A stretch of DNA of 64,000 nucleotides from Candidatus Gottesmanbacteria bacterium GW2011_GWC1_43_10 (GTDB lineage Bacteria; Patescibacteriota; Microgenomatia; UBA10105). The notes beneath the pieces are model-generated. The model did no database searches, had not been told where the DNA came from, and worked only from the letters and a program-made list of their open reading frames with translations. Shown in pieces: positions 707 to 34,138 of this stretch. Made by a program: the position numbers and the translations under genes. The first letter of the stretch is position 1. Every line of letters begins with the position of its first letter. The DNA lies in the NCBI GenBank assembly GCA_000995415.1, contig LCEX01000002.1, forward strand, positions 19,232 to 83,231, in the 5' to 3' direction.

Positions 707-2176
707 ATGGATGACTCAGATGTTCCTTATCAACGTTTCAAGAAACAGGTGGCCCAAAGCATTCTAGTATTAGGGGTCAGACGGATTTTATACCAAGTCA
801 TACTAACTTCAGCTAATATCGTTTTAGCCCGAGTCTTAAATCCTGAAATCTTTGGTACATTTGCGATCATTTCGTTTTTTGTTTTAAACCTAGGTATATT
901 TACCAATTTAGGATTACAACAAGCACTTATCCAGAGTAAAGATGAACCGGATGCTAAAGATATTCAAGTATTTTTTACTGTACTTGTAAGTACTTCTATA
1001 TTATTTGTTCTGGCGATGTATTTTTTGGCTCCGATCATCGCGAATTTTTATGGAGGGAAACTAGGTCCGGAGAGTATTTTTTGGTTACGGGTATACGCAG
1101 TATATATCTTATTTGGCAACATAGCTTCAGTCTCGATGACCTTACTGGATAAAAGCCTAAACTATGTCAAACTTACCATGGCGGAACTTGCGACTCTCGG
1201 GATAACACAAGTCTTGATAATTATTTTGGCAATAAATGGTTATGGTTTAGCAAGTTTGATACTGGGAAATTTGATCGGTAGCATCTCGGGAATAATCATC
1301 TATTATGGGTTGTCGCCGTGGTCCTTCGGCATACATTTTTCTTTTTCCCGACTTAAACGATTTTTGGCTTTTGGACTTAACTACCAATTTGGAACTTTGA
1401 CTGGAGCTTTTAATGCAGCGGTCATTCCTTTATTTGTGGGTACTGTTTCTGGGCCGGCCGCGGTAGGGTTTATCAACATGGCCGGCGGTATCAGGCAAGC
1501 AGGACTCGCGCCTACGGAAATGATAAGTAAATTGGCATTTACCGCCGGGGCCCGAATCCAAAATCAAACACAAACCCTAAAAAAGCTAACCGAACGAATG
1601 TTTCAGTTTGCCGCAATTTTTAGTTTTCCAATACTTGCTTTAACTGGCGCCCTAGTTCCTCAATTTATTCAAATAGTGCTTTCAAAAACTTGGTTGCCGA
1701 TGATCATAACTTTATATCTATCTTTATTCCAAGGTGTATTTATTTTGTATAGCACTATTTTGATTCAAGTGTTGTTGGCATTGGGTCTTGCCAAAGAAGT
1801 CCGGAATATTTCGCTCTTGTGGTCTTTTATGCAATGGATACTGACAGTACCTTTGGTAGTCTTTTTTGGATTTAACGGAGCTGTCATGGCCGGACTCATC
1901 GTTTCGGCGACTTTTTTTATTCCACTTTCTGTACTTCATAACAAGGTAAAAATAAATATTTGGTCACCGACTTTACCGTATTTGTTTTTTGCGATCGTCG
2001 CTGCCAGTATCGTCTACGGGCTGGGAAAATTATTTGAAATTCATTTCTTTTGGGAGTTGTTGCTTATGGGGTTTGTTGGACTATTTGTTTACGCATCATT
2101 ATTATATCTATTCCGTGGACAATATCTGTTAAATGAATTCAAAATTTATAAAGAAAATTTTTTTTCAAAAACGTGA
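707..2176 (+). CDS. Polysaccharide/oligosaccharide flippase, Wzx-like (MOP/PST family)
   Basis: 489 aa with about 12-14 hydrophobic segments and the typical PST-family N-terminus (RILYQVILTSANIVLARVL); it sits at the head of the glycosyltransferase cluster. TGA stop overlaps the GTG of the next gene. Confidence 0.75.
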   Translation: MDDSDVPYQRFKKQVAQSILVLGVRRILYQVILTSANIVLARVLNPEIFGTFAIISFFVLNLGIFTNLGLQQALIQSKDEPDAKDIQVFFTVLVSTSILFVLAMYFLAPIIANFYGGKLGPESIFWLRVYAVYILFGNIASVSMTLLDKSLNYVKLTMAELATLGITQVLIIILAINGYGLASLILGNLIGSISGIIIYYGLSPWSFGIHFSFSRLKRFLAFGLNYQFGTLTGAFNAAVIPLFVGTVSGPAAVGFINMAGGIRQAGLAPTEMISKLAFTAGARIQNQTQTLKKLTERMFQFAAIFSFPILALTGALVPQFIQIVLSKTWLPMIITLYLSLFQGVFILYSTILIQVLLALGLAKEVRNISLLWSFMQWILTVPLVVFFGFNGAVMAGLIVSATFFIPLSVLHNKVKINIWSPTLPYLFFAIVAASIVYGLGKLFEIHFFWELLLMGFVGLFVYASLLYLFRGQYLLNEFKIYKENFFSKT

Positions 2177-2829
2177 ATTTTCTGCACCGCTTATTATCAA
2201 TAAATCCACTGACCGCGCCTTTAATGCGATATGGGTCGTACATCAAAAACTACAAATTGACTTTGCAGGTCGAAGATAGACTGATCCAAAAAATGCTTCC
2301 GAGTTGGCGGAAAATGCAAATTCTGGATGTCGGTTGCGGTCCGGGCGAGAGAGAAAAGGACCGGCGCTTCCAGGGAGCTGACATCCTCTGTTTTGATATT
2401 TATACGCCTTACTTGGAGGTTTGCAAACGTTTAGGTTTTCAAACTAAGAAAGGAGATGCCCGTTTTTTATCTCGCTATTTTCGACCTAAATCTTTTGATA
2501 TCGTGTTGGCACTTGATGTGATTGAGCATATGACCAGAAGTGAAGGCAGACGATTTTTAAAGCAACTGGAAATAATTGCCCGGAAACAAATAATTATTTT
2601 GACGCCATTGGGTTGGTTCCCCCAAGACCATGAGTGTGTGGGTGACGGAACCAATAAACATCAGCAACATAAGTCAGCCTGGTACAGAAAAGATTTCGAG
2701 CTACTCGGATATGAGTGCGAAGTTTTATACCATAATTTGCGAGATATCCGAAACGGAGCTAAAGCACTGATACACAAAAAAACTCCGATCCCGGCGAGCC
2801 AAATGTGGGTAGTAAAGCTTATTGTTTAA
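2173..2829 (+). CDS. Class I SAM-dependent methyltransferase
   Basis: Motif I ILDVGCGPGE and motif-II-like LALDVIEHM. Start codon uncertain (GTG at 2173 in track). Confidence 0.65.
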   Translation: MNFLHRLLSINPLTAPLMRYGSYIKNYKLTLQVEDRLIQKMLPSWRKMQILDVGCGPGEREKDRRFQGADILCFDIYTPYLEVCKRLGFQTKKGDARFLSRYFRPKSFDIVLALDVIEHMTRSEGRRFLKQLEIIARKQIIILTPLGWFPQDHECVGDGTNKHQQHKSAWYRKDFELLGYECEVLYHNLRDIRNGAKALIHKKTPIPASQMWVVKLIV

Positions 2830-2833
2830 CCTT

Positions 2834-3664: not shown

Positions 3665-3678
3665 ACTGCATCAGAAAA

Positions 3679-4443
3679 ATGAATCAACGAAAAACTGATC
3701 CGGAATTTTCTGAAGAAAGAGTTGTGCCAGATTTTAAAGAGCAGCACAATTTGTTTCAGGAACACTTTGCCCGCTATAAGTTTGCAGCTAAGTATGTTTT
3801 GGGGAAACAAGTACTTGATGCGGCTTGTGGATGCGGATATGGAGGGAAATTGTTTGCAGACAGCGGTGCCCAAAAAGTGACCGGCATAGATATCTCAAAA
3901 GCCGCAATTAAGTATAGCACTACGCACTATCGTAGTTCTGGTTTGACGTTTAAATTGATGGATTGTCAAAAATTGTTATTTAAAGACCAGGCGTTTGACG
4001 TGGTGACGGCGTTTGAATTCATCGAGCACTTGAGCTTACCAGGGCGGTTTTTACGAGAAGTGGATCGGGTATTGAAAACACAGGGAGTGTTTGTTATTTC
4101 TACACCAAATAATCTGAGAAATTCTCCCATTGAAAATAAATACCATTTCCGAGAATACAATGCTGTATCCCTTCGGTCATTGTTGAAGCCTTTTTTTTCC
4201 AAAATAGATCTTTATGGGCAGCGATATAAACCCTCAATTACTAGGCGGACAAAGCATCGGCAAAAATTAGTCAACTCAGTCCCAAAATTTGTTACTCGTT
4301 ATCTACCGTCAGGTCTAAAAGATTACTTATTCTCCCGCTTGATAAACCATTATTTACTGAACCTCAAAAATGAGGCGGATTTCAATATTGACCAAAATGA
4401 AATTGGAACAGCAACCCATCTGATAGGAGTTTGTTACAAGTGA
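3679..4443 (+). CDS. Class I SAM-dependent methyltransferase
   Basis: VLDAACGCGYGG motif I and AFEFIEHL motif II. Confidence 0.8.
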   Translation: MNQRKTDPEFSEERVVPDFKEQHNLFQEHFARYKFAAKYVLGKQVLDAACGCGYGGKLFADSGAQKVTGIDISKAAIKYSTTHYRSSGLTFKLMDCQKLLFKDQAFDVVTAFEFIEHLSLPGRFLREVDRVLKTQGVFVISTPNNLRNSPIENKYHFREYNAVSLRSLLKPFFSKIDLYGQRYKPSITRRTKHRQKLVNSVPKFVTRYLPSGLKDYLFSRLINHYLLNLKNEADFNIDQNEIGTATHLIGVCYK

Positions 4444-5579
4444 ATAAATATAGAATCCATATTCTTTGCCCGCGACTTGGGATAACCGACAGAGGTGCAG
4501 AAGTATTTGTCTATGAGTTGGCTAAATATTTACAGCGCGACTTTGCAGTGACAGTTTGGGTAAGAAAAACCAAAGGTCAATCATCAATGCTTGCTGATCT
4601 AAAAAAATATGAGGTCCAGGTAAGGTATGCTACTTGTATCGACGAGTCTCACCCCATTGCCTCGACGCTCTATAAAATTCATCCCCTTAGAAAAGTCCTT
4701 GAAAAACTGCGCCTTGATCCGATGGGGATAGAAATGCTGTCGTTTAGCTTGGTTTGCTTGCCAGGATTATTCCGATCGGGTGCGGATGTCCTGTTTCCCG
4801 TAAACGGTATCTGGGGAGTTTTGGCTTGTCAAATTGTGCGTATCTTTACCGGCATCCCATTTATATATTCATCTCAAGGTGGGATTGAACCACCGGTAGC
4901 ATTTTTACAGCCAAATGTTTATATAGCAATTCACAGGTATACAAAGTCTTGGTTGCTTAAACATTTTCCAAAACTGAAAGTCGTACATATTTCAAATGGA
5001 ATTGATTTGAAACGATTTACACCCCATGGAGAAAAGATTGTATTGGATTTGCCCCAGCCAATCTTTATCACCGTCAGCGCCTTGATACCTACAAAACGCA
5101 TTGATCTGACCATCAAAGCTATGGCCAAACTAAAATCTGGAAGTTTATTGGTATTGGGAAACGGACCGCTTAAGGAGGAACTCACCCAGTTAGGTGTACG
5201 CCTATTAGGGAGTGGCCGTTTTAAAATCCTGGCCGTCCCCAATACCCAAATACCCAAGTACTATCGGAGTGCATCTGTGTTTGCTTTTGCCGCGCCTGAA
5301 GAAAAAGGCTGGGGACTCGTACATTTGGAGGCTTTAGCATGTGGATTGCCGGCAGTTGTAAACGATGAAGAAAATTTGCGGTCTTTGATTGGTAAGGCTG
5401 CATTTTATTGTGATGTTTATGATGCCAACGCGTATTCTCGGTGTCTCTTTAAAGCCAATCAGAAACATTTTAATAGTGAAGGTAGACGTATCGCCCAAAC
5501 AGTAGCGTGGGAAACTGTGGGAAAAAAATACAGCCAACTCTTATATCAAATAGCAGCCAAAAATGAAAAAAGTAACTAA
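4440..5579 (+). CDS. GT4 (group 1) glycosyltransferase
   Basis: C-terminal E-x7-E region GWGLVHLEALACGLPAVVNDEE. GTG at 4440 overlaps the upstream TGA; TTG at 4431 is an alternative start. Confidence 0.8.
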   Translation: MNKYRIHILCPRLGITDRGAEVFVYELAKYLQRDFAVTVWVRKTKGQSSMLADLKKYEVQVRYATCIDESHPIASTLYKIHPLRKVLEKLRLDPMGIEMLSFSLVCLPGLFRSGADVLFPVNGIWGVLACQIVRIFTGIPFIYSSQGGIEPPVAFLQPNVYIAIHRYTKSWLLKHFPKLKVVHISNGIDLKRFTPHGEKIVLDLPQPIFITVSALIPTKRIDLTIKAMAKLKSGSLLVLGNGPLKEELTQLGVRLLGSGRFKILAVPNTQIPKYYRSASVFAFAAPEEKGWGLVHLEALACGLPAVVNDEENLRSLIGKAAFYCDVYDANAYSRCLFKANQKHFNSEGRRIAQTVAWETVGKKYSQLLYQIAAKNEKSN

Positions 5580-7293
5580 TTCACAGATTTGCTTAGGACT
5601 CATTTTGCTTTTAGCTTTTTTAGTAAGGGTTTGGGGGGTGGGATTTGGTTTACCCGCAAAACATTTCATTGACGAAGAAGGACAAATATACGGTGCGCTT
5701 TATGCTGCATATTCTCGGCTACAACCGGTTCGATTTATGTATGCCTCGTTTGTTCCTTATTTATTGTTGGCTGAATATGGAACAGTTTTTATAATCGGAA
5801 AAATCAGCGGCATATATCTGGCACCGTTTGACTTTTTGGTGGCTTATATTCGTGATCCCAGCAACCTGTTTTTGCTCGGGAGACTGACTATGGTTGTGGC
5901 TGGGACTTTAAGTGTCTGGCTGATATGGAAAATAGGCAAGAAATTTTATTCGAAAACCAGCGGTTTGGTAGCAGCTGGATTTTTGGCGATCATTTTTCTC
6001 CATGTAAAAGAATCTCACTATGTCAAACAAGATGTAATTTCTACTTTATTTATCCTCATGAGTTTTTATTTGGCTTTACTCAGTGTAGAAACCAAGAGGT
6101 TGCAACAGTATTTATTTACCGGAGTGACTTTGGCCTTGGCAGTGAGTGCTAAATACCAAACATTACTTATAGCGCCCGTCTTGTTTATCCACTATTACCT
6201 GACGCGCAAAAAGCCGTCGCTATCCCAATCGGTTGTGCTCGGAGTAGGTTTTGTATTGACCATGCTACTCTTAAATCCTTATTTTGTTTTGGCGCCAAAA
6301 AAAGTAATAGATGGGACTTTGGCAGAGTTTGCAATTGCCAAAACCGCTTATCCAGAGTTATTGCAAGGTCATCCAGTGTGGTGGTGGTTTGTATTTCAAC
6401 ATTTACCGCAAGGGTTGGGGACGGTTTTATTCGGAGCTAGCATTTGGGGTAGTCTGGTTTGTGTAGGACGAGGAATAAAAAATAGAAAATATTTGCTGAT
6501 TCCCTTACTGCCTGTAGTTTTTTTGTTGACCGTAGATCAATGGTCCCAATTCCCGAGTGCCAGATACGCGGTCATGTTGCTACCCTTTTTAGCCCTGGCC
6601 GCGGCTATTGGCCTCGAGTTTATTTTTTCTTTTCTGCCTCGTCACAAAGCAAGATCACTTTTCATGTTTGGGGCAATCCTCTTAGTGAGTATGGAATCGG
6701 GGATACGAGATGTAAAATTTGACTATTTGCTGACGCGGCCAGATACGCGTTATTTGAGTCAACAATGGATTGAGTCGCATATTCCGCTCGGCACGAAGAT
6801 TTTGGTAGAATCGACGGTCAGGCCTGAATACGGAGCCAATGTAAATACGCCGCTGACTTTATCCACCAGTGCAAATGACAAGCGGCTTAACGAGGCTCAA
6901 TCACGGGGCGAGTCTGGTTTATATTTGCAAGCTCTCAAAAAAGCCAATTTAGGCAAAGTTGGTTATGACATCGTAGCCACAGGTCGAGTCGACGTGCTGC
7001 TTGATGTTTTTACCAGTGAAAAAACGCTTATGGAAAATGCCGATTATTACGTCAGTTCCGAAGTGGATTATTTAGTTTTATCTAGTTGGTCAGTGAAACC
7101 GGATATGAAGCCGGAATTTATGCAATCAGTTGGTCGCCATTATGATTTGATAGCAAAATTTCGGCCGACTTATGAATTTCCCGACGACCCTCATTTGGTA
7201 AAAATGGATTATGCGGTTCTTGATCGCGTCTCTTTTTGGGGAAAGCCGGTCATTTTCGGGCCGGTGATTGATATTTACAAAAAACGAACATGA
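5563..7293 (+). CDS. Polytopic membrane protein, GT-C-fold glycosyltransferase-like (ArnT/PMT-type)
   Basis: 576 aa with many TM segments. Signal-anchor LLLAFLVRVWGVGFGLP is followed by an acidic loop HFIDEEG (DE-type motif after TM1), as in lipid-linked-sugar GT-C enzymes. Confidence 0.5.
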   Translation: MKKVTNSQICLGLILLLAFLVRVWGVGFGLPAKHFIDEEGQIYGALYAAYSRLQPVRFMYASFVPYLLLAEYGTVFIIGKISGIYLAPFDFLVAYIRDPSNLFLLGRLTMVVAGTLSVWLIWKIGKKFYSKTSGLVAAGFLAIIFLHVKESHYVKQDVISTLFILMSFYLALLSVETKRLQQYLFTGVTLALAVSAKYQTLLIAPVLFIHYYLTRKKPSLSQSVVLGVGFVLTMLLLNPYFVLAPKKVIDGTLAEFAIAKTAYPELLQGHPVWWWFVFQHLPQGLGTVLFGASIWGSLVCVGRGIKNRKYLLIPLLPVVFLLTVDQWSQFPSARYAVMLLPFLALAAAIGLEFIFSFLPRHKARSLFMFGAILLVSMESGIRDVKFDYLLTRPDTRYLSQQWIESHIPLGTKILVESTVRPEYGANVNTPLTLSTSANDKRLNEAQSRGESGLYLQALKKANLGKVGYDIVATGRVDVLLDVFTSEKTLMENADYYVSSEVDYLVLSSWSVKPDMKPEFMQSVGRHYDLIAKFRPTYEFPDDPHLVKMDYAVLDRVSFWGKPVIFGPVIDIYKKRT

Positions 7294-8252
7294 AACAAAA
7301 CACGCCCCAGTACCAGAAAGCTCATGACTTCAGCAAGAGAATAAATAGCCTTTTGGGCTTTCGGTACGGGATTTCGCCTCCGGTGTCGGACGAGAAGCCG
7401 CGGACTTTAGTCCGCGGAGGCTCACTTACCGCTCATTGTTTGGTGAAAAACGAACAGAATTGGGTGTGGTTTGCTATCAATTCGGTATTGGACTTTGTAG
7501 ACAAAATTATCGTTTTTGATACCGGTTCCACGGACGACACAGTTCCCATCATCAAGACAATACGAAGTCCTAAAATCAAATTTTCACAAAAAGGCCCAGT
7601 TGATAAAAAACAACTTACCCGACTCCGGCAGGAGATGCTGGATCAAACCAAAACTTCCTGGTTTATGGTGCTAGACGGGGATGAGATTTGGCCAAGAACC
7701 ACGATTGCCGAACTGACCGCGGCTATCCGCCAAGCCAGCTCTAAACAACAGGCAATTGTTGTCGGCCAATGGATGTGGCAGGGAGACGTGTATCACTACT
7801 CGCCAGTAGTTGAAGCCTTGGTTGATCCACTCGCACCAAAGAACTTGACCGGATACAGGTTGCCGCGAGCTATCAAAATGCTGCCAGGAATTCAGACAAT
7901 CGGAGAATATGGATGGGAAAGTTACGCCGACCAAAAAAATCTCAACGTTTCCGACTGGAATAAAGAACGACTGATATACATAAAAAACAAATTTTTCCAC
8001 GCTTCATTTTTACCGCGTTCTAGTACGAGGGAAAAAGACAGAGAGGTGATGATGCGCGGCCCCAAAACCAGATTTACTAAAGGCGCGTTATTTCCCAAAA
8101 ACGTCATTTTGCCCGAAATCCTATCTGCCAAACGGCCACAGCAAGTTCCTTCTCCCTGGCAGCATCTGACCCTAAAGCAAGCAGCAGTGGGTTTTTATTA
8201 TAGAGCGCAAAATTTAGTCGAGCGATTTGGGAGGCAGGTCGGAAATTTATGA
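7290..8252 (+). CDS. GT2-like glycosyltransferase
   Basis: CLVKNEQNWV...VFDTGSTDDT...VLDGDEIW (DxD); ATGA overlap with the upstream gene. Confidence 0.6.
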   Translation: MKQNTPQYQKAHDFSKRINSLLGFRYGISPPVSDEKPRTLVRGGSLTAHCLVKNEQNWVWFAINSVLDFVDKIIVFDTGSTDDTVPIIKTIRSPKIKFSQKGPVDKKQLTRLRQEMLDQTKTSWFMVLDGDEIWPRTTIAELTAAIRQASSKQQAIVVGQWMWQGDVYHYSPVVEALVDPLAPKNLTGYRLPRAIKMLPGIQTIGEYGWESYADQKNLNVSDWNKERLIYIKNKFFHASFLPRSSTREKDREVMMRGPKTRFTKGALFPKNVILPEILSAKRPQQVPSPWQHLTLKQAAVGFYYRAQNLVERFGRQVGNL

Positions 8253-9268
8253 CGACTCTCGGACTCATCGGTTTTGGATATTGGGGGCCAAATTATGCCC
8301 GAATTCTATCTCGACTTCAAGGAGTCAGACTCAAGTGGATTTGCGACATAAACGAAGATTTGTTGAAAATCGCTCAGACCGACTTTCCCAAGATCAATGT
8401 TTCCACCAATTATCTCGAAGTTTTAAAAGATAAAACTGTGGATGCGGTGGTGATCGCCACTCCGGTAACGACCCACGCAGCACTGGTTAAATCTGCTTTA
8501 GAATACGGTAAGCATGTTCTGGTCGAAAAACCTTTGACCACCTCAAGTAAGCTTGCCGAACAACTATTTGCTACCGCATCTCGACACAAACTCCGACTCT
8601 TTGTCGGCCACACTTATTTGTTTCATCCGGCAGTGATTAAATTAAAATCACTTCTTAAAAAGCAGCTTTTGGGTAAACCGCTGTTTTTTATTTGTCAGCG
8701 GACCAATTTTGGGCCAATCAGAAAAGATGTCAATGTACTGTGGGATCTGGCTTCACACGATATTTCTACTCTATTATTCTTAACCGGAAGTGAGGTCGTT
8801 AGTATCAGCGCGAGTGGGACAAATTACATCGACCCAGATATTGCAGATTTGGCAAACATCAATTTGATTTTTGCAAATGGGACATTTGCCAGTATTCTGG
8901 TCAGTTGGTTAGCTCCGGTAAAAGTGCGGCAAGTGACAGTAGTGGGGGAACAAAAAATGGCGGTATTTGATGATACGAGCATTAGTAAATCTTTGCAAGT
9001 TGTTGATAAAGCAGCTATTACTTTTAAACCGGGACAACCTGTAGATTTTATAAATTTTAAAAAGAATTTTGCTTACGTCAGCAAAAGACAAGTTATTCGG
9101 ATGGAAAAACGTGAACCTTTGGGGATGCAAATAAAAGCATTTATTAAATCCCTCCAAAAACCGAATAGTTTTTTCGTTTCATCCCGACACGTCTGCGATG
9201 TAATTAAAGTTTTAGAAAAAGCCGATCAAGCATTGCTATCTGGTAAAACTGTTGAGATGCGGGTTTAA
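8249..9268 (+). CDS. Gfo/Idh/MocA-family NAD-dependent sugar-nucleotide oxidoreductase (WbpB-like)
   Basis: N-terminal Rossmann LGLIGFGYWGPNYARIL and EKP motif (VLVEKPLTTS). Confidence 0.85.
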   Translation: MTTLGLIGFGYWGPNYARILSRLQGVRLKWICDINEDLLKIAQTDFPKINVSTNYLEVLKDKTVDAVVIATPVTTHAALVKSALEYGKHVLVEKPLTTSSKLAEQLFATASRHKLRLFVGHTYLFHPAVIKLKSLLKKQLLGKPLFFICQRTNFGPIRKDVNVLWDLASHDISTLLFLTGSEVVSISASGTNYIDPDIADLANINLIFANGTFASILVSWLAPVKVRQVTVVGEQKMAVFDDTSISKSLQVVDKAAITFKPGQPVDFINFKKNFAYVSKRQVIRMEKREPLGMQIKAFIKSLQKPNSFFVSSRHVCDVIKVLEKADQALLSGKTVEMRV

Positions 9269-9310
9269 TCCGCCTTCGCGAAATTCCCCGATCGTAAGGT
9301 CGTGGGAGCC

Positions 9311-10723: not shown

Positions 10724-10766
10724 AATTTTTATCAGCGCGTTTTATGCTATTATACGTTACAAAAAT

Positions 10767-20229: not shown

Positions 20230-20232
20230 AAG

Positions 20233-20264
20233 TAGCTTAGTTGCTTAGTTACTTAGAAGTTTAG
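20233..20264 (+). repeat. 8-nt periodic CTTAG repeat in the spacer between the tandem paralogs
   Basis: AGCTTAGT-TGCTTAGT-TACTTAGA-AGTTTAGA. Confidence 0.5.
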
Positions 20265-20277
20265 AATTTTGAAGTTA

Positions 20278-23127: not shown

Positions 23128-23128
23128 A

Positions 23129-25486: not shown

Positions 25487-26241
25487 AAGTATCGGTCAGT
25501 TTGTGCGGATAAGTGTTTGGACAGTGATCGATAGTCAAGCCACCGAGGTAAAAGAAAATGCATCGAATCATAAGCGGTATAGTTGAAGTGGACTTGGCCC
25601 AGGGAATCAAGATACCGAAGACTTTTGAAAGTGTTATTCAGTAGTTCTCGATGAAATTCAAAAGAAATTAAAGGTAAAGAAGTTGTCAGTCCATGTAGCA
25701 CATTAGTTTCATACCCTTCGACATCGATTTTGCAAAATGCGGGTTGGCCATATTTTTGGATCAGAGTGTTCAGGGTGACGAGCGGAATCTTTTGCACCCG
25801 GGTCCAGCGAAAATCTTTGGCGAAGCGGCTATGGGTCACCCAACTTTTACTCATGGTGGTGATAGCCGGTTCTTGTTCACAAATAGCTAAAGAACCCCAG
25901 CCGTTTTTTGCTGAAGCAGCATAGGGGATGATGGCGACACGGGGATCATTGGCAAATTTGTGTCGCAATTCGGCAAGGGAAGCTGTTGCTGGTTCAATAG
26001 CTACTACTCTTGCGCCTAGTTTTAGGAATATGCTGGTTTTTTCGCCAAAACAAGCGCCCACATCAAAAACTAGGTCATTAGGACGGACAAATTGCCCGAA
26101 AAAATTTTGTTCCCGGCGGCGGCGCAAAAAATGCAATTTATCAAAGGTACGCCAGCCCCATCGTACAACCGGGTAAAAGCGAGTAGCTTGAATTGTTTTT
26201 ATAAACCACCATTTCATATTCATTTTTGGCCTAAAATCCAA
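25459..26241 (-). CDS. FkbM-family methyltransferase
   Basis: VFDVGACFGEKT...VVAIEP and KIDVEGYE motifs. Confidence 0.75.
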   Translation of the reverse strand: MDFRPKMNMKWWFIKTIQATRFYPVVRWGWRTFDKLHFLRRRREQNFFGQFVRPNDLVFDVGACFGEKTSIFLKLGARVVAIEPATASLAELRHKFANDPRVAIIPYAASAKNGWGSLAICEQEPAITTMSKSWVTHSRFAKDFRWTRVQKIPLVTLNTLIQKYGQPAFCKIDVEGYETNVLHGLTTSLPLISFEFHRELLNNTFKSLRYLDSLGQVHFNYTAYDSMHFLLPRWLDYRSLSKHLSAQTDRYLWGDIYAKL

Positions 26242-26942
26242 AAACTGTCGCGCCAGGTCGAAAGAGGCGAAGAAATCATCAGATAATTCAAAAGGTTTTT
26301 CAACGGCATGGGAAGTTTACGGAAAAAGACCGGTAGATACCAATCAAAAGGCACGTTATAGGCAGTCGGTAATCTGCAGGTGACAGATCCAAACCCGTTG
26401 AGTTTAAGTAAGTTTGCTAGGGAACTTGGAGTAAAAAACTGGATATGCGAGGGATCACTGTATCCAAACCAGCGCTTTCCCAGGATTAAGCGTAGCGGAG
26501 AAACAAAGTTCGGGGTAATTAAAAAGATATAACCGCGCGGTTTTAAAATACGCCAACTTGCAGAAATGAACTGTTGTGATTGGTAGGGCGTGAGATGTTC
26601 AATCACCGAAATCGAGGTGATCAAATCAAAAGTGGATTTTATAAACGGCAGGCGACTGGCTGAGGCACGAACGATATTTTTCGGTGGGTTTATTTTGCGC
26701 GCGAGTTTTAGAGCTGCAGTTTGATTGTCACAACCTTGGGCTCGGAAACCTGATAGATTCAAAAAACGGACCAGGCGGCCGGTGCCGCAACCGACATCCA
26801 AAACAGACTTGAGTCGGTGTTTGCGCATCAGAAGTTTAACCGATTCGGCAATATGTAGATCAAGGTGGTCGCGTTCATGGAAGTATTGCGGATCGTATAG
26901 AGCTGGTTTTTTTTTCATAATATTATTCAAATTAGGTAGCAT
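26220..26942 (-). CDS. Class I SAM-dependent methyltransferase
   Basis: VLDVGCGTGRLVRFL motif I and LKPRGYIFLITPN. Confidence 0.75.
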   Translation of the reverse strand: MLPNLNNIMKKKPALYDPQYFHERDHLDLHIAESVKLLMRKHRLKSVLDVGCGTGRLVRFLNLSGFRAQGCDNQTAALKLARKINPPKNIVRASASRLPFIKSTFDLITSISVIEHLTPYQSQQFISASWRILKPRGYIFLITPNFVSPLRLILGKRWFGYSDPSHIQFFTPSSLANLLKLNGFGSVTCRLPTAYNVPFDWYLPVFFRKLPMPLKNLLNYLMISSPLSTWRDSFWILGQK

Positions 26943-26996
26943 CCGTTAATAACATGATTACTATAATATTGAAAAATGTGGCACAAAGGGCCGTAA

Positions 26997-28121
26997 TCAT
27001 CCGCCCTGGGCGGACGAACGAGCCTTTAGCTTCCTGTATCCATAAAAAGCTGCTCCCAAGGCGTTGGATTCATCTCCGGGGTTAGGAGCTATGTGCATAT
27101 CCTTCACTGATTGTAGTTTAGCGATTTTTTGATTGGCCCGAGTATTTAAGAAGACACCTCCAGCTAACGCTAATTCATGAATTTTAGTTTGGGTTACTGC
27201 ATTTTTGACCCAAGTCGTCAAACTATCTTCTAATATTTTTTGGGCAGCACAAGCTACGATATCTGGATTTAATCCAGCCAACTTCTCGCGTAAATAAAAA
27301 TCAAAATGACGCGAGGGGATTTGAGATTTAAACTGTAGCCCTTCTACCCAGATTAATTTTTGCAAAAGCTTAATGATTTTTTGGAAGTTGTGGCGAGCTG
27401 TAGCACGGGCCAGTTGCATGACTCGGGCTTCTTCTTTGTGCGGAATAAATCCTAAAAAAGCAGTGATACTGGCATAGAAAAGACCCAAAGAATGAGTATG
27501 TGAAGTCTGACTAAGGCAGTGAAATTGCCCATTTTCCACTATATAAACTGCAGCCGAAGTGCCATCCCCGGCACCGTCACATGTTAAAACCAAAGTTGGG
27601 TTGGAAGAGAGGTGGGGACGGGAAAAATAAGCAGTATAGGCGTGACACAAATGATGGTCGAGGCGGATGATTTTTTTTGGGTCAAGTTTGAGACTGGTTG
27701 CGATATCCCGTATTTGTTGCTCTTGGTTTTGTGGTTGAAAGGCGGCATAGTACAACCTGCGTCCGGTATCGGTGACATAATTAAACCAGGAAAACTGGTA
27801 TTCCCAGCGAGGCGCTAAGTCACGCCATTTGCGTAAGAGCTTGGGTGTCGTGTCCGGTAGTTCCACGCTTTGGGCAGTCGTAAAATGCGGATAAGGATCG
27901 ATGTAAGACAGACAGATCAGATTAAGTTCATGAATAGCGATCCCGGCAATCCGGCAGCAATAATGGATCGCGTTTTTGGGGAAGCCGGATTGATTTTTGA
28001 TTTTGGTAAAGTGGTCTTCACGTGCCTTGGCTACGATTTTTCCGTTTTTAAGCAAGGCGGCTCCCGCACCCAACGCTTCGTTGAGACCCAAGACATAAAT
28101 AGGTTTAGATTTTTTCCACAT
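26997..28121 (-). CDS. Carbamoyltransferase N-terminal-domain protein (NodU/CmcH family; C-terminal domain absent)
   Basis: MWKKSKPIYVLGLNEALGAGAALLKNGKIVAKAREDHFTKIKNQSGFP matches the family N-terminus and the HHLCHAYTAYF His motif. Only ~375 aa, against 573 aa for the full-length paralog at 43054. Internal ATG at 28121 chosen, because the track start would overlap the upstream GT4. Confidence 0.65.
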   Translation of the reverse strand: MWKKSKPIYVLGLNEALGAGAALLKNGKIVAKAREDHFTKIKNQSGFPKNAIHYCCRIAGIAIHELNLICLSYIDPYPHFTTAQSVELPDTTPKLLRKWRDLAPRWEYQFSWFNYVTDTGRRLYYAAFQPQNQEQQIRDIATSLKLDPKKIIRLDHHLCHAYTAYFSRPHLSSNPTLVLTCDGAGDGTSAAVYIVENGQFHCLSQTSHTHSLGLFYASITAFLGFIPHKEEARVMQLARATARHNFQKIIKLLQKLIWVEGLQFKSQIPSRHFDFYLREKLAGLNPDIVACAAQKILEDSLTTWVKNAVTQTKIHELALAGGVFLNTRANQKIAKLQSVKDMHIAPNPGDESNALGAAFYGYRKLKARSSAQGG

Positions 28122-29244
28122 GTTTTTTGATAACTTGGGTAAAAATGTCAATATACTTATCGGCAATTTTGGACCAATCAAAGATGTGTTGGGCACGTTG
28201 GTAAGCTCGGATCCCCATTCTACGGCGCAAGTCGGGTTTGTCAATCAGGCGTTTAGTAAAAAATAACAACTCGGAAAAATCGCTGGCCACATATCCGGTT
28301 TGGCCGGAAATGATGACTTCCGCCGCCGCCGCAAAATTTAGAGCTACTGCAGATTTACTAAAGCTCGCGGCTTCAATGATAGGTAACCCCAAAAACAGGT
28401 ATTTATCAGCAGTGATATAAATATCTGTTTGTTGATACAGCTTAATTAGTTTTGCATCACCAGGCGAAACGATTATTTGTACTTTAGGATCAAGGGTTTT
28501 CAGGTACTTATAATATTGTGATTGTGGCGCAGAGCCTACCAAAGTCAATTTCAAGCCGGGATAAACTATTACCAATTTTTTATACATACCAATCAACAGT
28601 TCAAACTGCTTATAAGGAGTAATGCGACTCACCGATAACAGATTAACAGTTGATTTATTTTTCCGATAATCAGATTTGGATAAGTTCACTGCCTGCAAAT
28701 CAGTTCCCAAATAAATATACGGACACTTCAAGTGGTAGAGACGAAAAGCTTCGAGACTTGCAAAGCGGGAAATCGCAATTATTTGATGAGGTAGATGAAT
28801 TATTAACCATGTTTTTAGATAAATTAAGAAATTTAAGAATGGTTCTAACAGCCACAATACACGTCGTAAATTCATAAAATGCTCGCCCAGGACATTAAAC
28901 TGTGTACCATAATATGTTTCAATAAGGGGTATACGAGTTGACCAAGCAGCGATGATAAATGTCAAGATAGTATGGGCGCTAATCACATCGGGTTGATATT
29001 TCATCAGCTGTTGTCTGACTTTAACTAAATCTATGAATTTTCCTACGATTGGAAATGGGGTTTGGAAAGTCAGTCTGACGTCGACTCCGGCAGTTTTAAG
29101 AAGTTTAATCGTGTTTTGGTCTTGGTTAGTTGAATAACTTATAAAAACGACGGAATGCTTTTTGGCTAGCGCTCGCGCCAAGTCAATTGGAGCCCGCGCC
29201 CCGGATTTGAGGTTGCAAATAAGACCGAGAACTGCGATTTTCAT
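28105..29244 (-). CDS. GT4 (group 1) glycosyltransferase
   Basis: MKIAVLGLI N-terminus and E-x7-E region LGLPIIEAASFSKSAVALNFAAAAE. Confidence 0.75.
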   Translation of the reverse strand: MKIAVLGLICNLKSGARAPIDLARALAKKHSVVFISYSTNQDQNTIKLLKTAGVDVRLTFQTPFPIVGKFIDLVKVRQQLMKYQPDVISAHTILTFIIAAWSTRIPLIETYYGTQFNVLGEHFMNLRRVLWLLEPFLNFLIYLKTWLIIHLPHQIIAISRFASLEAFRLYHLKCPYIYLGTDLQAVNLSKSDYRKNKSTVNLLSVSRITPYKQFELLIGMYKKLVIVYPGLKLTLVGSAPQSQYYKYLKTLDPKVQIIVSPGDAKLIKLYQQTDIYITADKYLFLGLPIIEAASFSKSAVALNFAAAAEVIISGQTGYVASDFSELLFFTKRLIDKPDLRRRMGIRAYQRAQHIFDWSKIADKYIDIFTQVIKKHVEKI

Positions 29245-30653
29245 TTTTGGATCAAATATAAAATTTTTAAGTTTCCAATGTGCCAACTTTGACTTGTTTT
29301 ATAGTCTGCAAAGATTTTGGTTAGTGCCAATTCTTTTTGTGATGCAATGGTCCATTTTTCAGTATCTACTAACCACAAACTTTTCTCCCGCGGCGGAAAC
29401 AAATATTGCCCGCCAATAAATTTACGCGTTGCAAAAGACAAAGGATTGGGAGTGATTAAATAATTGGCCAGCCGGTTTTGAGTATAAAAGTCAAATGAAT
29501 AATACGTCGAAACCGAAGTATGTACCACAACCGCAGGTTGCTTGTCGATCAGTGACTTCACGAGTTGTAATTTTTCTCCAGCGAAAAAGGGATCAAAAAT
29601 TTGGATTAAGGTCACTACTATAAGAAGCAATAAAAAGACTTTGGTATAAAACGGATTCGCTAAGTCCAGACCGCGGGCGATGATCAGGAAATACAGTGGA
29701 CTAAAAATTGCAAAAGCTTTTGGCGAAAAAGCCGGGACAAAAAGTGAACCAGCTGTTAAAAGAAATAACGGAAAAACTAAGATTAACATCGGTTTGTGGG
29801 AATAGAAAAAACCTTTGACAAAAAAGACACCCGCAAAGAACACGGCGGCTACAAAAATAAGTTGGATAGATGTTGGTAGATTTGGAAACGCGCGTAATGT
29901 AACCTCGCCGATACCGCCCAAAATAGGTGACACCAAACTTGCTGGGAGCGATAGCCAAGTGGGCGGACAGGCACAAGGACTGTGCGGCGTGATTAGGGCC
30001 GCAGCCAGCCACGGAGACCAGATAAGAAAAATCAGAGATAAAAGCTGTGTCCATTTAATTGGAGTTAGTTTTTTGGGTTCGGTGAAAACCAGGATCGTTA
30101 ACGGCAAGAATACTAGTAAGATATAATATTGGGTATACAAACCCAGGATTGACCAGAGGACAAAAAAAACTAGATTTTTTCGGTTGACGGTGGTAGTCAG
30201 ATCAAAAAACGAGTGGATGATTCCGACTAAAAACAGTCCGGCCAGAGCATGGAGACGAGCTTCAGTCGCTAGATAAATTTGCAGCGGAGAAATCGCGAGC
30301 AGGATGGTAGTGACCACGGCAACTCGGTTCGGAAATAATTTTTTGCCAATCAAAAAGGTCAACCAAATAGTAGCCAGGTTAAAAACCAGAGATGGCAAAC
30401 GCAAAACCAACGGATTTTTGCTCAAAAATAGCAAAAAATGAATTAATAAATAATATAGTGGCGGATTGCTATCGGTTAAGACCGCCGGCCAGATTTGGAC
30501 AAAAGGCAATTTAGCGATTTCGTAGGTAAAAGCCTCATCAAACCAAAATGCTCGCACAGGTAAATAAAGCAGACGTAATCCCAAAGCTAGTCCTAAAATT
30601 AGAAATATAGTTATTGTTGGGAGCGAAAGTGATTTGGATAGGCGAGTTTTCAT
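29241..30653 (-). CDS. GT-C glycosyltransferase, ArnT/PMT (GT39/GT83)-like
   Basis: 470 aa and highly hydrophobic, with a classic first-loop motif RAFWFDEAFTYEIAK. Confidence 0.7.
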   Translation of the reverse strand: MKTRLSKSLSLPTITIFLILGLALGLRLLYLPVRAFWFDEAFTYEIAKLPFVQIWPAVLTDSNPPLYYLLIHFLLFLSKNPLVLRLPSLVFNLATIWLTFLIGKKLFPNRVAVVTTILLAISPLQIYLATEARLHALAGLFLVGIIHSFFDLTTTVNRKNLVFFVLWSILGLYTQYYILLVFLPLTILVFTEPKKLTPIKWTQLLSLIFLIWSPWLAAALITPHSPCACPPTWLSLPASLVSPILGGIGEVTLRAFPNLPTSIQLIFVAAVFFAGVFFVKGFFYSHKPMLILVFPLFLLTAGSLFVPAFSPKAFAIFSPLYFLIIARGLDLANPFYTKVFLLLLIVVTLIQIFDPFFAGEKLQLVKSLIDKQPAVVVHTSVSTYYSFDFYTQNRLANYLITPNPLSFATRKFIGGQYLFPPREKSLWLVDTEKWTIASQKELALTKIFADYKTSQSWHIGNLKILYLIQK

Positions 30654-31414
30654 TTTTTGGTAATCACAAAATGACAGCTGGGTAGATTTTTTAATTCTGG
30701 TAAAAATTTAACAACTCGTCCATAATTAACCGGCAAAGTCCATACTCCTTTAAAAATGATTTTAAGTTGGGCTTGGATCAGTAGGTTTTCCAATCTTTTC
30801 CAGGTCAGCGGTTGTTCGATTGGCTGCTGTTGTAAACTAATGATGTGGGTGAGTAGGTTGTAAACGATTTGAATAGCGGGAAAAGAGGGCAGTTTGTGAA
30901 CTGTTAATATTTGGATTTTTGACACGCGGGCCATTTCCGATATCGCGAGTTCTGGATCGGCAAAATGTTCCAGACTACCGGCACAAATTGCTAGATCAAA
31001 AGCATCGTCAACAAATGGTAGATGCGCCGCGTCTGCCTGGACTAAAAACTTGGCGCCGCGGTTTTTACTTTTACGTAAAGCATTATAAGCAAATTCGACG
31101 CCGACTGTTTCCGAAACCCGACTCTCCAATTCGCCGTCGCCGGAAGCCACGTCGATGGTAGTGTTGCCGCGTGCAAAACAGGCTAAGACCTCATAAACCC
31201 CATCCGTCGGCACAGCGAATTTCCGGCGGTGTAACTTTTCGTAAAGTCGGCGTGAGGTTTCGGAAACAGGATGGGGATTGTAAAGCAACTTCCAGACACC
31301 TTGTTTGCAACTAAACCCAAAGTCGCAGACAGCACAGTGTTTACGAGTAAGTTTCAGTTTGGTTTTACATCTAGGGCAAGCAAGGGAATCCAGAAATTGA
31401 GTTTGCGTCAGCAT
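30650..31414 (-). CDS. SAM-methyltransferase with N-terminal Trm112-like zinc ribbon
   Basis: CPRCKTKL...CAVCDF ribbon, then IDVASGDGEL and a methyltransferase-type-11 core. Confidence 0.7.
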   Translation of the reverse strand: MLTQTQFLDSLACPRCKTKLKLTRKHCAVCDFGFSCKQGVWKLLYNPHPVSETSRRLYEKLHRRKFAVPTDGVYEVLACFARGNTTIDVASGDGELESRVSETVGVEFAYNALRKSKNRGAKFLVQADAAHLPFVDDAFDLAICAGSLEHFADPELAISEMARVSKIQILTVHKLPSFPAIQIVYNLLTHIISLQQQPIEQPLTWKRLENLLIQAQLKIIFKGVWTLPVNYGRVVKFLPELKNLPSCHFVITKK

Positions 31415-32292
31415 AAGTGTTTGCGGGCGATAAAAGTCTCATCAAGATGTTGTAAGTTCCACCAGGCACCTTTAAGCAGTGGAATAAATCTGCCATCGCC
31501 TAAAAAAAGTCGCAGCGGTACGATGAGTAAAAATTGGATTAAAAAGATACTTAAGACATTTACCCACGGTAAATTTTTTAAGACAAAACGAAACTTGTTT
31601 TTGTACCATTGATAATATTTTTCCGGTAAATTTTTGTTCATTGTTTTGGTGACTCCGTGCCAAAAGATGGCTTGAGGTAGATAGACGATTTGTAAACCGC
31701 TTTTTTTGATTCTTAATGCTAAGTCATAATCTTCAAAATAAATCAGCGAAAACCCCGGATCCAACAAACCTGCTTGCGTCAAAGCCTTTCGCGAAGTCAG
31801 TAAAGCACAACCTTGTAACCAGTCCGGCGATTTGACAAGCTCCGGGTTTGGAGCCGAATAAATATGTCCGGTCCAACGGTTCATCATAAACCCGGCGGTC
31901 GAAAGTTTTGCGTGTTGATCCTTACTAAAAATCTTACCCCCAATCAACCCCACTCGCGGATGGTTGACTAGATAGCGCACCAATATTTGAAGTGAGTTGT
32001 TTTCAAACATCAAGTCATCGTTGCCGATGAAAATATATTCACCTTTGGCTTGAGCGATACCCAAATTGACAGCTTTAGCAAAACCTAAATTGACTGAATT
32101 TAAAATCAGTTTTACGTGGGGATATTTGCGTTTGATCAAAAGAGGTGAACCATCTGCAGAATGATTATCTACGACAATAACTTCCAATTTTGTTTTGGGA
32201 TAGTTAAGCCGAGCAATCGAAGATAGGCAAGCTAATGGTTCATTGCCACCATTAGCATTGGGAAAAATGATAGAAATAGTTGGTTCGCTCAT
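31408..32292 (-). CDS. GT2 family glycosyltransferase
   Basis: ISIIFPNANGG...VIVVDNHSADGS...IGNDD. Confidence 0.8.
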   Translation of the reverse strand: MSEPTISIIFPNANGGNEPLACLSSIARLNYPKTKLEVIVVDNHSADGSPLLIKRKYPHVKLILNSVNLGFAKAVNLGIAQAKGEYIFIGNDDLMFENNSLQILVRYLVNHPRVGLIGGKIFSKDQHAKLSTAGFMMNRWTGHIYSAPNPELVKSPDWLQGCALLTSRKALTQAGLLDPGFSLIYFEDYDLALRIKKSGLQIVYLPQAIFWHGVTKTMNKNLPEKYYQWYKNKFRFVLKNLPWVNVLSIFLIQFLLIVPLRLFLGDGRFIPLLKGAWWNLQHLDETFIARKHLC

Positions 32293-32307
32293 TTATCATC
32301 TATTAAG

Positions 32308-33126
32308 TTATGTCAGTTTATCATTTAATCTGATAAGTTGAAAAAAAGCAAACTCAATAAACTTGGTTATGATCAATACTGCTGCTGCCAGCGGATCAGC
32401 CAGCAACATTGGAAATTTTCTAGCCATGAGTTTCAGTCGAAACCAACCGCTTTGGTGTAAAAACTGTTGCGGATGGTATCTGGCATACACCTGAATATGT
32501 TTGGCATAATAAAATTTGTGTTTAAGCTCGCGCCAGAATGAAGTTTCGTAGTGATAAAGCGAAGTACGAGTTCGGCCAATGTTGCCGATTCGACTTACCC
32601 GTTGGGATAAATCCCAATCTTCACCCGCGACTAGATTTTCTCTAAACCCGCCGACTTTGAGAAAGACAGACTTTTTAATAAATCTGGCTGCTTCAATAAC
32701 TGGCTCGTTTAGATAAAGTTGTTTCTCGAGTTTTTTGACTCTAGTAAACCAGCCTTTTCCTTTGACAGTTTCTGGGATGATCACCGCGTCAGCGAGGTTG
32801 GTTTGAATAGCTTTAACGCAGTCAGCGATGACTGTTGATGGTAGTTCCATGTCAGCATCCAAGAGCAAAAGATGGCGACCTCGGGATTTAAGTACACCAA
32901 AATTTCTTTGTTTACTGCGTTCGCCGGAGTAAGAAAAAACCTGCACCGGAAATTTTTTGACTATTTCCAATGTGGTGTCGGTGGAATAATTGTCGACAAT
33001 AATGATCTCCAAACTGGTAAAAGTTTGCTTAAGCAAACTTTTGAGTAGACGTTGGATATTCATTGCTTCATTTTTGGTTGCAATCACGACTGACACCAGC
33101 GGAGATGAAACACTTTTCTTAACCAT
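32308..33126 (-). CDS. GT2 family glycosyltransferase (polyprenyl-phosphate sugar synthase-like)
   Basis: VSVVIATKNEAMNI...IIIVDNYSTDTT...LDADME. Confidence 0.85.
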   Translation of the reverse strand: MVKKSVSSPLVSVVIATKNEAMNIQRLLKSLLKQTFTSLEIIIVDNYSTDTTLEIVKKFPVQVFSYSGERSKQRNFGVLKSRGRHLLLLDADMELPSTVIADCVKAIQTNLADAVIIPETVKGKGWFTRVKKLEKQLYLNEPVIEAARFIKKSVFLKVGGFRENLVAGEDWDLSQRVSRIGNIGRTRTSLYHYETSFWRELKHKFYYAKHIQVYARYHPQQFLHQSGWFRLKLMARKFPMLLADPLAAAVLIITKFIEFAFFQLIRLNDKLT

Positions 33127-34138
33127 ACAATTTTCGATTTAAGTCCTTTGTCAAAAGTTGCCAGATCCCGTTAGTCTGCATATAACTGTTTTGACAAATG
33201 AGACAAGTGAGTCGGCGATTTATCTTGGTTAATTTGCTGTGACAATTTGGACATTGGAATATCCTTTTTGGTTCGGTTTTTTGAACTCCCGAATTTTTAC
33301 GAAGTAGACCACTGATACCACCGCCAAACAGAGTTAAGCTAAATTTGCTGGTAAAAGGAAGTTCCAACTTCGATTTAAACTGAGCATTGGTTAAATGCAG
33401 ATGGCGGCCTACTAAAAATGGACTAATGGTGATTGTGCCATCAACAAATTCCCGAGTCAATTTTTGCCATAAGTTTAAACTGAATGCTTCTTCAGCGATG
33501 CCATAGTCGACTTCGCTTTTGCCGATTTCGGAGATAAATGGTAAAAGTAAGGAATATTTGAGCAACTTATTCCATCCGCTGGCCTTTGTAGGTCGGCGAA
33601 ACAGCCTCAGGTTAAATGTCTGTCTTACCGGTTCTTCGCTAAAAAAGAACCAGCCACCGGGTTTTAATACGCGCCAGATCTCTTTAACCACTGGTAAGGG
33701 ATCTGGAAAATGATGTAGAGTTTGATAACAAAAAACAAAAGCAAATGTTTGGTTGGAGAATGGGAGTTCATGGGCATCGGCCACAATCCGGATGGGGAAT
33801 TTAGTAAAACCAAATTGTTTGGCGAAATGCGGCATTGCTTCCAAAGGTGCCCGGGCCAAATCCAAAGCAAAACCCCGCCCGTCAAAAGCTGTTTCCAAAA
33901 GACAGGAACGCAATCCGTATTCCGCACCTATTTCCAGATATGGCTGTAAATTTATATTCTGATTTCGCAACTTACGAAAATCAGTTCGCGTCGATTTGAT
34001 GCGCTTTTTAAGCTCCGCTAGCATTTCTGTGGGCGTATACTCCTCCCGAAAGTGTTTTTCTAGACCCAGATGTTGTTGAGTGATTAAATGACGAAAGTTG
34101 ACTTCGCCCAGTTTTTGGATCAAGGTTTGTTTGGTCAT
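33119..34138 (-). CDS. SAM-methyltransferase with C-terminal zinc ribbon
   Basis: Methyltransferase-type-11 core (RVLKPGGWFFFSE) plus C-terminal CPNCHSKL...CLICQNSY. Confidence 0.7.
   Translation of the reverse strand: MTKQTLIQKLGEVNFRHLITQQHLGLEKHFREEYTPTEMLAELKKRIKSTRTDFRKLRNQNINLQPYLEIGAEYGLRSCLLETAFDGRGFALDLARAPLEAMPHFAKQFGFTKFPIRIVADAHELPFSNQTFAFVFCYQTLHHFPDPLPVVKEIWRVLKPGGWFFFSEEPVRQTFNLRLFRRPTKASGWNKLLKYSLLLPFISEIGKSEVDYGIAEEAFSLNLWQKLTREFVDGTITISPFLVGRHLHLTNAQFKSKLELPFTSKFSLTLFGGGISGLLRKNSGVQKTEPKRIFQCPNCHSKLTKINRRLTCLICQNSYMQTNGIWQLLTKDLNRKLYG

Follow-up and report, generated by a model that had tools for sequence, protein, structure and literature searches.

A glycan-biosynthesis gene island with eight methyltransferase domains in Candidatus Gottesmanbacteria

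The window analysed here is a stretch of 64,000 nucleotides from Candidatus Gottesmanbacteria bacterium GW2011_GWC1_43_10 (contig LCEX01000002.1, positions 19,232 to 83,231). From about position 700 to 44,800 it consists of a single long stretch of glycan-biosynthesis genes, as judged from the listing of its open reading frames (ORFs) and from Pfam and NCBIfam scans of these ORFs at curated cut-offs, with transmembrane (TM) segments predicted from hydropathy. The glycosyltransferases include five single-domain GT2, four single-domain GT4, one double-GT4 and three PMT_2-type GT-C enzymes, and the other genes encode a Wzx-like flippase, two carbamoyltransferases, an RmlD-like reductase, a GFO/DegT/hexapeptide-acyltransferase trio and four large membrane proteins with no assigned family. 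The same stretch encodes eight domains of methyltransferases that depend on S-adenosylmethionine (SAM), and we think it probable that the whole is a cell-surface glycan biosynthesis island made up of separately conserved modules, each with SAM-dependent methyltransferases. The eight domains, labelled in coordinate order (nt, nucleotides; aa, amino acid residues), are the following.

2173–2829, plus strand: M1, a small class I SAM-dependent methyltransferase (Methyltransf_11, 33.7 bits against a cut-off of 21.2; motif I ILDVGCGPG; post-I D75)
3679–4443, plus strand: M2, a class I SAM-dependent methyltransferase (Methyltransf_31, 79 bits; VLDAACGCGYG; D71)
9311–10723, minus strand: M3, a methyltransferase–GT2 fusion (Methyltransf_23 at aa 27–181, 64.5 bits; Glycos_transf_2 at aa 234–395, 127.6 bits)
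14393–15127, plus strand: X4, N-terminal domain with a predicted protein-kinase-like fold (invariant R25, D115-x4-N120 and D132)
15155–15763, plus strand: X4, C-terminal domain, a predicted class I methyltransferase (VWDMGANTGEFS; D310/D312; D337)
25459–26241, minus strand: M5, an FkbM-family methyltransferase (PF05050, 43.5 bits against 22.7; TIGR01444, 77.5 against 37.7; VFDVGACFGE; E93)
26220–26942, minus strand: M6, a class I methyltransferase and core operon member (Methyltransf_23, 67.8 bits; VLDVGCGTG; D72)
30650–31414, minus strand: M7, an N-terminal Trm112-like ribbon (aa 4–46, nt about 31277–31405) followed by a class I methyltransferase (aa about 71–190; 50.4 bits)
33119–34138, minus strand: M8, a class I methyltransferase (Methyltransf_11, 62.6 bits; aa about 64–169) followed by a C-terminal Trm112-like ribbon (aa about 287–331, nt about 33146–33280)

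ORFs are present at all eight coordinates at which the first-pass annotation of this sequence had placed methyltransferases, and the eight domains are real: seven of the ORFs score above curated Pfam or NCBIfam methyltransferase thresholds (M1 being the lowest-scoring of the seven Pfam-positive ones), and the eighth, X4, is recognized by its predicted fold. Motif I and the post-I acidic residue, which were checked as a possible point of refutation, are found in all eight, and the SAM-binding motifs are kept across the four families that were aligned (M3, X4, M7 and M8), so the domains do not look degenerate. None of the eight proteins has a TM-like segment. In pairwise BLAST comparisons M1, M2, M3 and M6 share 25–30 % identity, with M5 and X4 set apart, and the eight are not recent duplicates of one another. 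Their methyl acceptors are presumably sugars.

M5 to M8 lie within a core operon that runs along the minus strand from 37791 to 23129, with the RmlD-like gene first and the double-GT4 gene last. Its other members are as follows.

36862–37791, minus strand: RmlD-like NAD(P)-dependent sugar reductase, the first operon gene (RmlD_sub_bind, 155.9 bits)
34140–36869, minus strand: U909, a 909-aa membrane protein and conserved operon member (32–38 % identical homologues in nine related loci; also in L007, which equals L009)
31408–33126, minus strand: GT2c and GT2d, two GT2 glycosyltransferases between M7 and M8 (Pfam)
29241–30653, minus strand: GT-C (PMT_2) membrane glycosyltransferase (PMT_2, 40.3 bits; 37–44 % identical homologues in seven loci)
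28105–29286, minus strand: GT4b, a GT4 glycosyltransferase and conserved operon member (Pfam; 31–42 % identical homologues)
26997–28244, minus strand: carbamoyltransferase of 415 aa with the N-terminal (Kae1-like) domain only (Carbam_trans_N, 116.6 bits; no C-domain match)
23129–25486, minus strand: double-GT4 glycosyltransferase of 785 aa, the last operon gene (two Glycos_transf_1 stretches; 34–53 % identical homologues in 12 loci)

The overlaps between starts and stops of neighbouring genes suggest an operon with coupled translation. Its conservation was surveyed by looking up gene contexts, by scanning species-representative genomes and by running BLAST with each ORF against the window proteins (loci are given L numbers). 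The gene order M8–GT2c–M7–(GT-C)–GT4b–(carbamoyltransferase)–M6–(FkbM)–double GT4–U909 is kept in 13 other loci (L008–L020), from Woese-, Davies-, Levy- and Chisholmbacteria and other Patescibacteria, and since the same genes recur in the same order there the clustering is not due to chance. M6 homologues (46–61 % identity) are found in 13 of 13 loci, and homologues of GT2c (48–58 %) lie immediately upstream of the M7 homologue in eight; M5 homologues occur at 42 % identity in L007/L009 and L016, and M2 homologues, at 34–48 % in L008, L012, L014, L015, L019 and L020, are frequent accessory genes of the related operons. The first-pass annotation regarded methyltransferases in such numbers as rare, but each of the 13 related Microgenomates loci holds three to six methyltransferase genes per approximately 20 kb, and an Omnitrophica locus holds six, fusion included. 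Such a density is the norm for the Microgenomates lineage; it is real and selected, yet lineage-typical. Nor is the island, first described as one glycan locus, a single locus in the evolutionary sense, being composed of at least three separately distributed modules; an X4 homologue and a U952-like gene (see below) adjoin the operon in two loci, L013 and L019.

In L014, L015 and L017 the carbamoyltransferase homologues that occupy the corresponding place in the operon are 584–588 aa long and presumably full-length. A complete two-domain paralogue is encoded in the window at 43054–44775, and the short carbamoyltransferase may depend on that full-length copy or may be decaying. We note that five metagenome-assembled genomes with the Microgenomates-type operon (L012, L014, L016, L017 and L018; 47–49 % identity to M7) are titled 'uncultured Gammaproteobacteria bacterium', which looks like mislabelled taxonomy.

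The zinc ribbons of M7 and M8 are where they had first been placed, CPRC...CAVC at aa 12–29 of M7 and CPNC...CLIC at aa 296–315 of M8. The M7 family forms 117 clusters, and every named cluster is from Microgenomates-type bacteria of the candidate phyla radiation (CPR); C12, C15, C26, G91 and G93 are invariant in its alignment and the fourth cysteine is at least 90 % conserved. The M8 family keeps all four of the zinc-ligand cysteines without exception, and most full-length M8 matches carry a C-terminal CxxC...CxxC. When the two ribbon families are compared using hhalign they match with 98.4 % probability (E-value 5.6e-15, 43 columns), whereas ribbon-versus-core controls give nothing, and BLAST of the ribbons aligns M7 aa 13–58 with M8 aa 296–338 (E-value 1e-4). 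The Pfam family Trm112p (PF03966) is matched by 8 of 30 M8-family members (best E-value 3.1e-7) and, in a precomputed match, by one M7-family member (P0327); of the window's own isolated ribbons that of M7 is sub-threshold (E-value 0.023) and that of M8 has no match to PF03966. The ribbons of M7 and M8 thus appear to be homologous Trm112-like modules, and their placement, at the N-terminus in one family and at the C-terminus in another that is conserved together with it, represents a domain rearrangement. It had been proposed that these genes are a conserved mirror-image duplication. The pair is indeed conserved, being present in L008 and in 11 of 12 close loci from the scan (in the exception, which concerns M8, the locus ends on that side), but the duplication does not stand: direct BLAST of M7 against M8 finds only two short stretches, 40 % identity over 42 aa in the methyltransferase core and 33 % over 48 aa in the ribbon, and the ribbon has a fixed position in each family, so the two belong to different families and a mirror-image or recent duplication can be ruled out. 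Fusions of Trm112-like modules to methyltransferases are known in archaea and bacteria, with the module N-terminal, and Trm112 itself is an activator of tRNA, rRNA and release-factor methyltransferases (PMC5372719). M7 and M8 resemble these holoenzymes and fusions in joining a CxxC...CxxC zinc knuckle with a Trm112p-like signature to a class I methyltransferase, and differ from them in the C-terminal position of the M8 module and in lying within a glycosyltransferase operon rather than in a translation-linked setting.

The M3 fusion is genuine, as is the DPM1/ArnC/GtrB-like nature of its GT2 half, which was recognized by profile comparison with PDB proteins. The methyltransferase domain is encoded at nt about 10181–10645 and the GT2 domain (aa 230–441) at nt about 9401–10036, the latter carrying a DAD motif (317–319) and RxxGESK. 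The nearest solved structures to the family profile are PfDPMS (5mlz, 1.3e-27), ArnC (about 1e-25) and GtrB (2e-20), and M3 can be aligned with these polyprenyl-phosphate glycosyltransferases from aa 230 to 441 (PfDPMS, through RxxGESK) or aa 233 to 444 (ArnC), with the DAD motif shared. It differs from DPM1/PfDPMS, ArnC, GtrB and AglJ in having an N-terminal SAM-dependent methyltransferase domain and no TM helices. A database search with M3 yielded 7899 matches at E≤1e-10, the 120 best of which are mostly full-length fusions of about 450–490 aa with 43–60 % identity; among the matches listed are fusions from Gottesmanbacteria, Chloroflexota, Omnitrophota, Verrucomicrobiota and Altiarchaeota, some of them named 'bifunctional class I SAM-dependent methyltransferase/glycosyltransferase family 2 protein' by NCBI. 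In an alignment of 31 family members V44, E46, G48, C49, T51, G52, D67 and D317-A-D319 are invariant or nearly so, and a distinctive linker is also conserved (N137, W140, P142, P155 and N160). A literature search on methyltransferase–GT2 fusions or on Microgenomates glycan methylation found nothing relevant.

In four of four other genomes (L001, L024, L025 and L026) the M3 homologue has a PMT, PMT_2 or YfhO-like gene adjacent to it or at most two genes away, a likeness to the three-component systems GtrA/B/V, CsbB/GtcA/YfhO and ArnC/ArnT, and this pairing with GT-C-type neighbours supports a three-component, ArnC/ArnT-like logic. It is plausible that, as the first-pass annotation suggested, the fused methyltransferase couples methylation to lipid-linked sugar synthesis. 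Variants of about 810–820 aa (P0072, P0098, P0110, P0111, P0116 and P0118) add a C-terminal NAD-dependent epimerase/dehydratase; in these a single polypeptide would combine the modification of nucleotide sugars with methylation and with transfer to lipid. The Omnitrophica locus around one M3 homologue (L025) also contains five further methyltransferases, a B12-binding radical SAM protein, a SPASM radical SAM protein, a polysaccharide deacetylase and a GDSL lipase, and is a further example, from another phylum, of a glycan locus with heavy decoration. The genes at the left end of the window's own island and around M3 and X4 are these.

707–2176, plus strand: Wzx-like MOP flippase (Polysacc_synt_3, Pfam 170.9 bits; about 13 TM segments)
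5563–7293, plus strand: polytopic PMT_2/ArnT-like GT-C enzyme (PMT_2, 56 bits; seven TM-like segments)
8249–9268, plus strand: GFO/IDH/MocA oxidoreductase (Pfam)
10704–12758, plus strand: U684, a 684-aa polytopic membrane protein and the divergent neighbour of M3 (about 14 TM segments; no Pfam match)
12747–13868, minus strand: DegT/DnrJ/EryC1 sugar aminotransferase (Pfam, 365.8 bits)
13831–14370, minus strand: hexapeptide-repeat acyltransferase (Pfam)
15760–17313, plus strand: membrane protein with an alkaline phosphatase (AP)/sulfatase-like domain (about four or five N-terminal TM segments; weak Sulfatase match)
17365–23127, plus strand: U954 (17365–20229) and U952 (20269–23127), paralogous membrane proteins of about 950 aa (32 % mutual identity)

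U684 is presumably a candidate GT-C-type partner of M3. The GFO, DegT and hexapeptide genes form an amino-sugar (oxidize, transaminate, acetylate) trio that flanks M3; such a trio is typical of 3-acetamido-sugar synthesis of the WbpB/E/D or GnnA/B kind, and its presence suggests which sugar may be attached to polyprenyl phosphate by M3.

The gene at 14393 had been described as a methyltransferase. This holds for its C-terminal domain, but predicted structure and homology indicate that X4 is not a plain methyltransferase and is instead a NoeA-type protein, with a protein-kinase-like N-terminal domain and a Rossmann-like, seven-stranded class I methyltransferase C-terminal domain in the model. 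X4 (14393–15763) has no Pfam match either at full length or when the N-terminal domain is scanned alone. A Candidatus Gottesmanbacteria metagenome-assembled genome (RIFCSPHIGHO2) encodes a protein with 100 % identity to X4, a match that assigns the window to this lineage, and thousands of X4 homologues, at about 50 % identity, occur across phyla. In a tblastn search against plasmids X4 can be aligned over its whole length with Ensifer NoeA (33.6 % identity over 462 aa, E-value 2e-85, 99 % coverage), which makes it a full-length homologue of rhizobial NoeA. The NoeA/Lani_1194 family has already been described bioinformatically with respect to its kinase and methyltransferase architecture and its neighbourhood (PMC9758233), and X4 shares with it a kinase-like domain in which arginine replaces the catalytic lysine and a conserved D/N/D triad.

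A further likeness to NoeA and NoeB of Sinorhizobium/Ensifer (nodL-noeA-noeB host-range operon) is the AP-fold membrane protein encoded next to X4, the gene for which overlaps the X4 stop codon and sits at the position of noeB, although the window has no nodL and the module lies inside a CPR glycan island. Homologues of this partner (30–33 % identity) are encoded directly downstream of X4 homologues in L003, L005 and a Singulisphaera plasmid, the protein of the last (30 % identical to that of the window) being annotated 'LTA synthase family'; rhizobial NoeB has no significant BLAST match to the window partner. In rhizobia and two metagenomic contigs a conserved membrane ORF of 71–76 aa with the motif 'AY(L/I)DP(G/A)SGS' overlaps the start of the NoeA homologue (L003, 7781–8011; L005, 7780–8004; L027, 4757–4972), and no 'AYLDPGSGS' small membrane ORF was found upstream of X4 in the window. 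A 681-aa protein beside the X4 homologue in L005 was considered as an equivalent of U684 and ruled out, as it has no BLAST similarity.

U909, U952 and U954 are three paralogues of about 910–950 aa with 24–32 % mutual identity and a common layout, namely an N-terminal polytopic domain, a soluble domain of about 500 aa and a C-terminal TM segment. None of the three has an above-threshold Pfam match, U954 showing only a sub-cut-off one to PTPS_related, a family that the U909 homologue in L007 also matches weakly. PDB sequence searches found no relative of the U909 family or of U684. The U909 family may be GT-C-like and previously unrecognized. Right after the glycan genes, a 1054-aa protein (44859–48023) with weak, sub-cut-off CarboxypepD_reg and Ig-like matches may be a surface protein that is a target of the GT-C enzymes. 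Past the island, the segment 48091–51705 encodes an AAA_14/DUF4143 ATPase and a 738-aa protein in which a TOTE-conflict-system AEP primase domain is fused to a ResIII/DEAD helicase; these are probably genes of a defence or mobile element. There are tRNA genes at 54430–54514 and 59046–59117.

Several observations weigh against the view that the island methylates a surface glycan through these modules. The substrates of class I methyltransferases are unassignable from sequence, and the NCBIfam equivalog matches are all far under their cut-offs; M3 is under every one of them (AglJ, 94 against 325 bits; ArnC, 66 against 529; PpgS and others). The hydropathy profile of M3 shows no TM helix, unlike ArnC, GtrB and PfDPMS, although human-type DPM1 likewise has none. 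The U684 and U909 families have no recognizable GT-C signature, and because the AP-like partner of X4, like U909 and U684, has no relative in the PDB sequence search, the GT-C or transferase roles of all three are inferred. The NoeA-type module is also found outside glycan loci (L003), M8 has an unusual motif I ('EIGAE', in which a single glycine is conserved), and Trm112-type ribbons are otherwise tied to RNA and protein methyltransferases.

The last point could mean that several of the methyltransferases, chiefly M7 and M8, act on proteins, RNA or lipids and are merely housed in a glycan operon. The known partners of Trm112 would favour this, as would the lack of a match to any family-specific sugar methyltransferase model, but in 12–13 loci from different Microgenomates classes M7 and M8 are fixed between glycosyltransferase genes with which they have overlapping stop and start codons, and the M7 family is found only in Microgenomates-type lineages and in the context of glycan operons, so we consider such substrates unlikely. 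That some of the domains are degenerate or structural, serving for GT2 scaffolding or dimerization in M3 or in a SAM-independent role in M8, seems to us very unlikely. The M8 motif I without the usual GxGxG and the score of M1, at 33.7 bits only, speak for it, whereas the motif residues noted above are present in all eight proteins and vary little or not at all within the M3, X4 and M7 families; the M8 family keeps D92 and D120 without exception, and E68, G70 and A71 at 90 % or more. Sugar O-methyltransferases of the TylF type similarly lack the central glycine of motif I.

A different role for X4 is suggested by the chain terminator WbdD of E. coli O9a, which has the same pair of kinase and methyltransferase domains. 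X4 might phosphorylate and then methylate the non-reducing end of a glycan made by the double-GT4 (WbdA-like) polymerase, in which case part of the methylation would form a methyl-phosphate cap that sets chain length and would not be sugar O-methylation. A double-GT4 enzyme is indeed encoded in the island and an X4 homologue lies in a ManB/ManC/ABC2_membrane locus (L004), but X4 has its two domains in the opposite order, lacks the coiled-coil ruler and shows no significant sequence similarity to WbdD (E-value about 1); together with the context these rule out X4 as a WbdD orthologue. Moreover, Pfam scans found no Wzm/Wzt transporter in the window, the conserved AP-fold membrane partner is not present with WbdD, and not every copy of the module lies near glycan genes. 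The published likeness to WbdD concerns a separate Legionella kinase–methyltransferase, Lcin_0519, which is called 'reminiscent' and only 'remotely related', and the NoeA family (Lani_1194) and WbdD are compared there only through side-by-side domain arrangements (PMC9758233). A WbdD-like function for X4 is thus improbable.

Returning to the preferred interpretation of a modular surface-glycan island, we infer the substrates and the order of reactions as follows. The GT2 and GT4 enzymes of the core operon would build a polyprenyl-phosphate-linked oligo- or polysaccharide at the cytoplasmic face, the residues of which would be decorated by the soluble M8, M7, M6 and M5 and by the carbamoyltransferase before export; since SAM is cytoplasmic and the methyltransferases have no TM segment, methylation would have to precede export. 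The decorated product would then be flipped by Wzx (707–2176) and transferred or extended outside by GT-C enzymes of the PMT_2 family and perhaps of the U909 family. The GT2 domain of M3 would make a polyprenyl-phosphate monosaccharide for the neighbouring GT-C enzyme, as in ArnC/ArnT, GtrB/GtrV and CsbB/YfhO, and the fused methyltransferase domain, in which the motifs are intact, probably acts within the same polypeptide on this sugar or on the nucleotide precursor of it. X4 and its AP-fold membrane partner, as a NoeA/NoeB-type pair, may add a phosphate-linked, methylated substituent. Glycan pathways with multiple methyltransferases include those of the mycobacterial polymethylated polysaccharides and glycopeptidolipids; Haloferax volcanii AglP methylates a dolichol-phosphate-linked glycan, and enzymes of the NoeI/FkbM type are sugar O-methyltransferases. 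The island resembles such pathways in having soluble SAM-dependent methyltransferases among glycosyltransferases, with methylation at a cytoplasmic or lipid-linked stage, a likeness of layout rather than of demonstrated sequence-level orthology.

More tentatively, and with considerable doubt, we suggest that the operon specifies a lineage-wide Microgenomates envelope glycan whose residues nearly all receive methyl groups, and often carbamoyl groups, at the time of their addition, that the cis-fused Trm112-like modules activate sugar methyltransferases, and that the methyltransferase–GT2 fusion makes a methylated polyprenyl-phosphate sugar as donor for an extracytoplasmic GT-C enzyme. If this were true the product, a hydrophobic 'polymethylated polysaccharide', would be comparable in function to the mycobacterial methylglucose lipopolysaccharide (MGLP) and methylmannose polysaccharide (MMP), and the methylated polyprenyl-phosphate sugar would be a donor type not yet described. 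Every component appears to belong to a family already known or annotated; what is new is a methyltransferase-rich operon conserved across Microgenomates, which extends known themes and does not overturn current understanding. The island unites three widespread fusion families (methyltransferase–GT2, the NoeA kinase–methyltransferase with its AP-fold partner, and Trm112-like/methyltransferase), and biochemistry on any of the three would allow hundreds to thousands of genes to be annotated; NoeA itself has been known since 1995 as a rhizobial host-range determinant. CPR bacteria (Patescibacteria) live attached to hosts and their envelopes are almost unstudied, and the operon, which Gottesman-, Woese-, Davies-, Levy- and Chisholmbacteria have in common, offers a concrete candidate for the source of a lineage-typical surface polymer.

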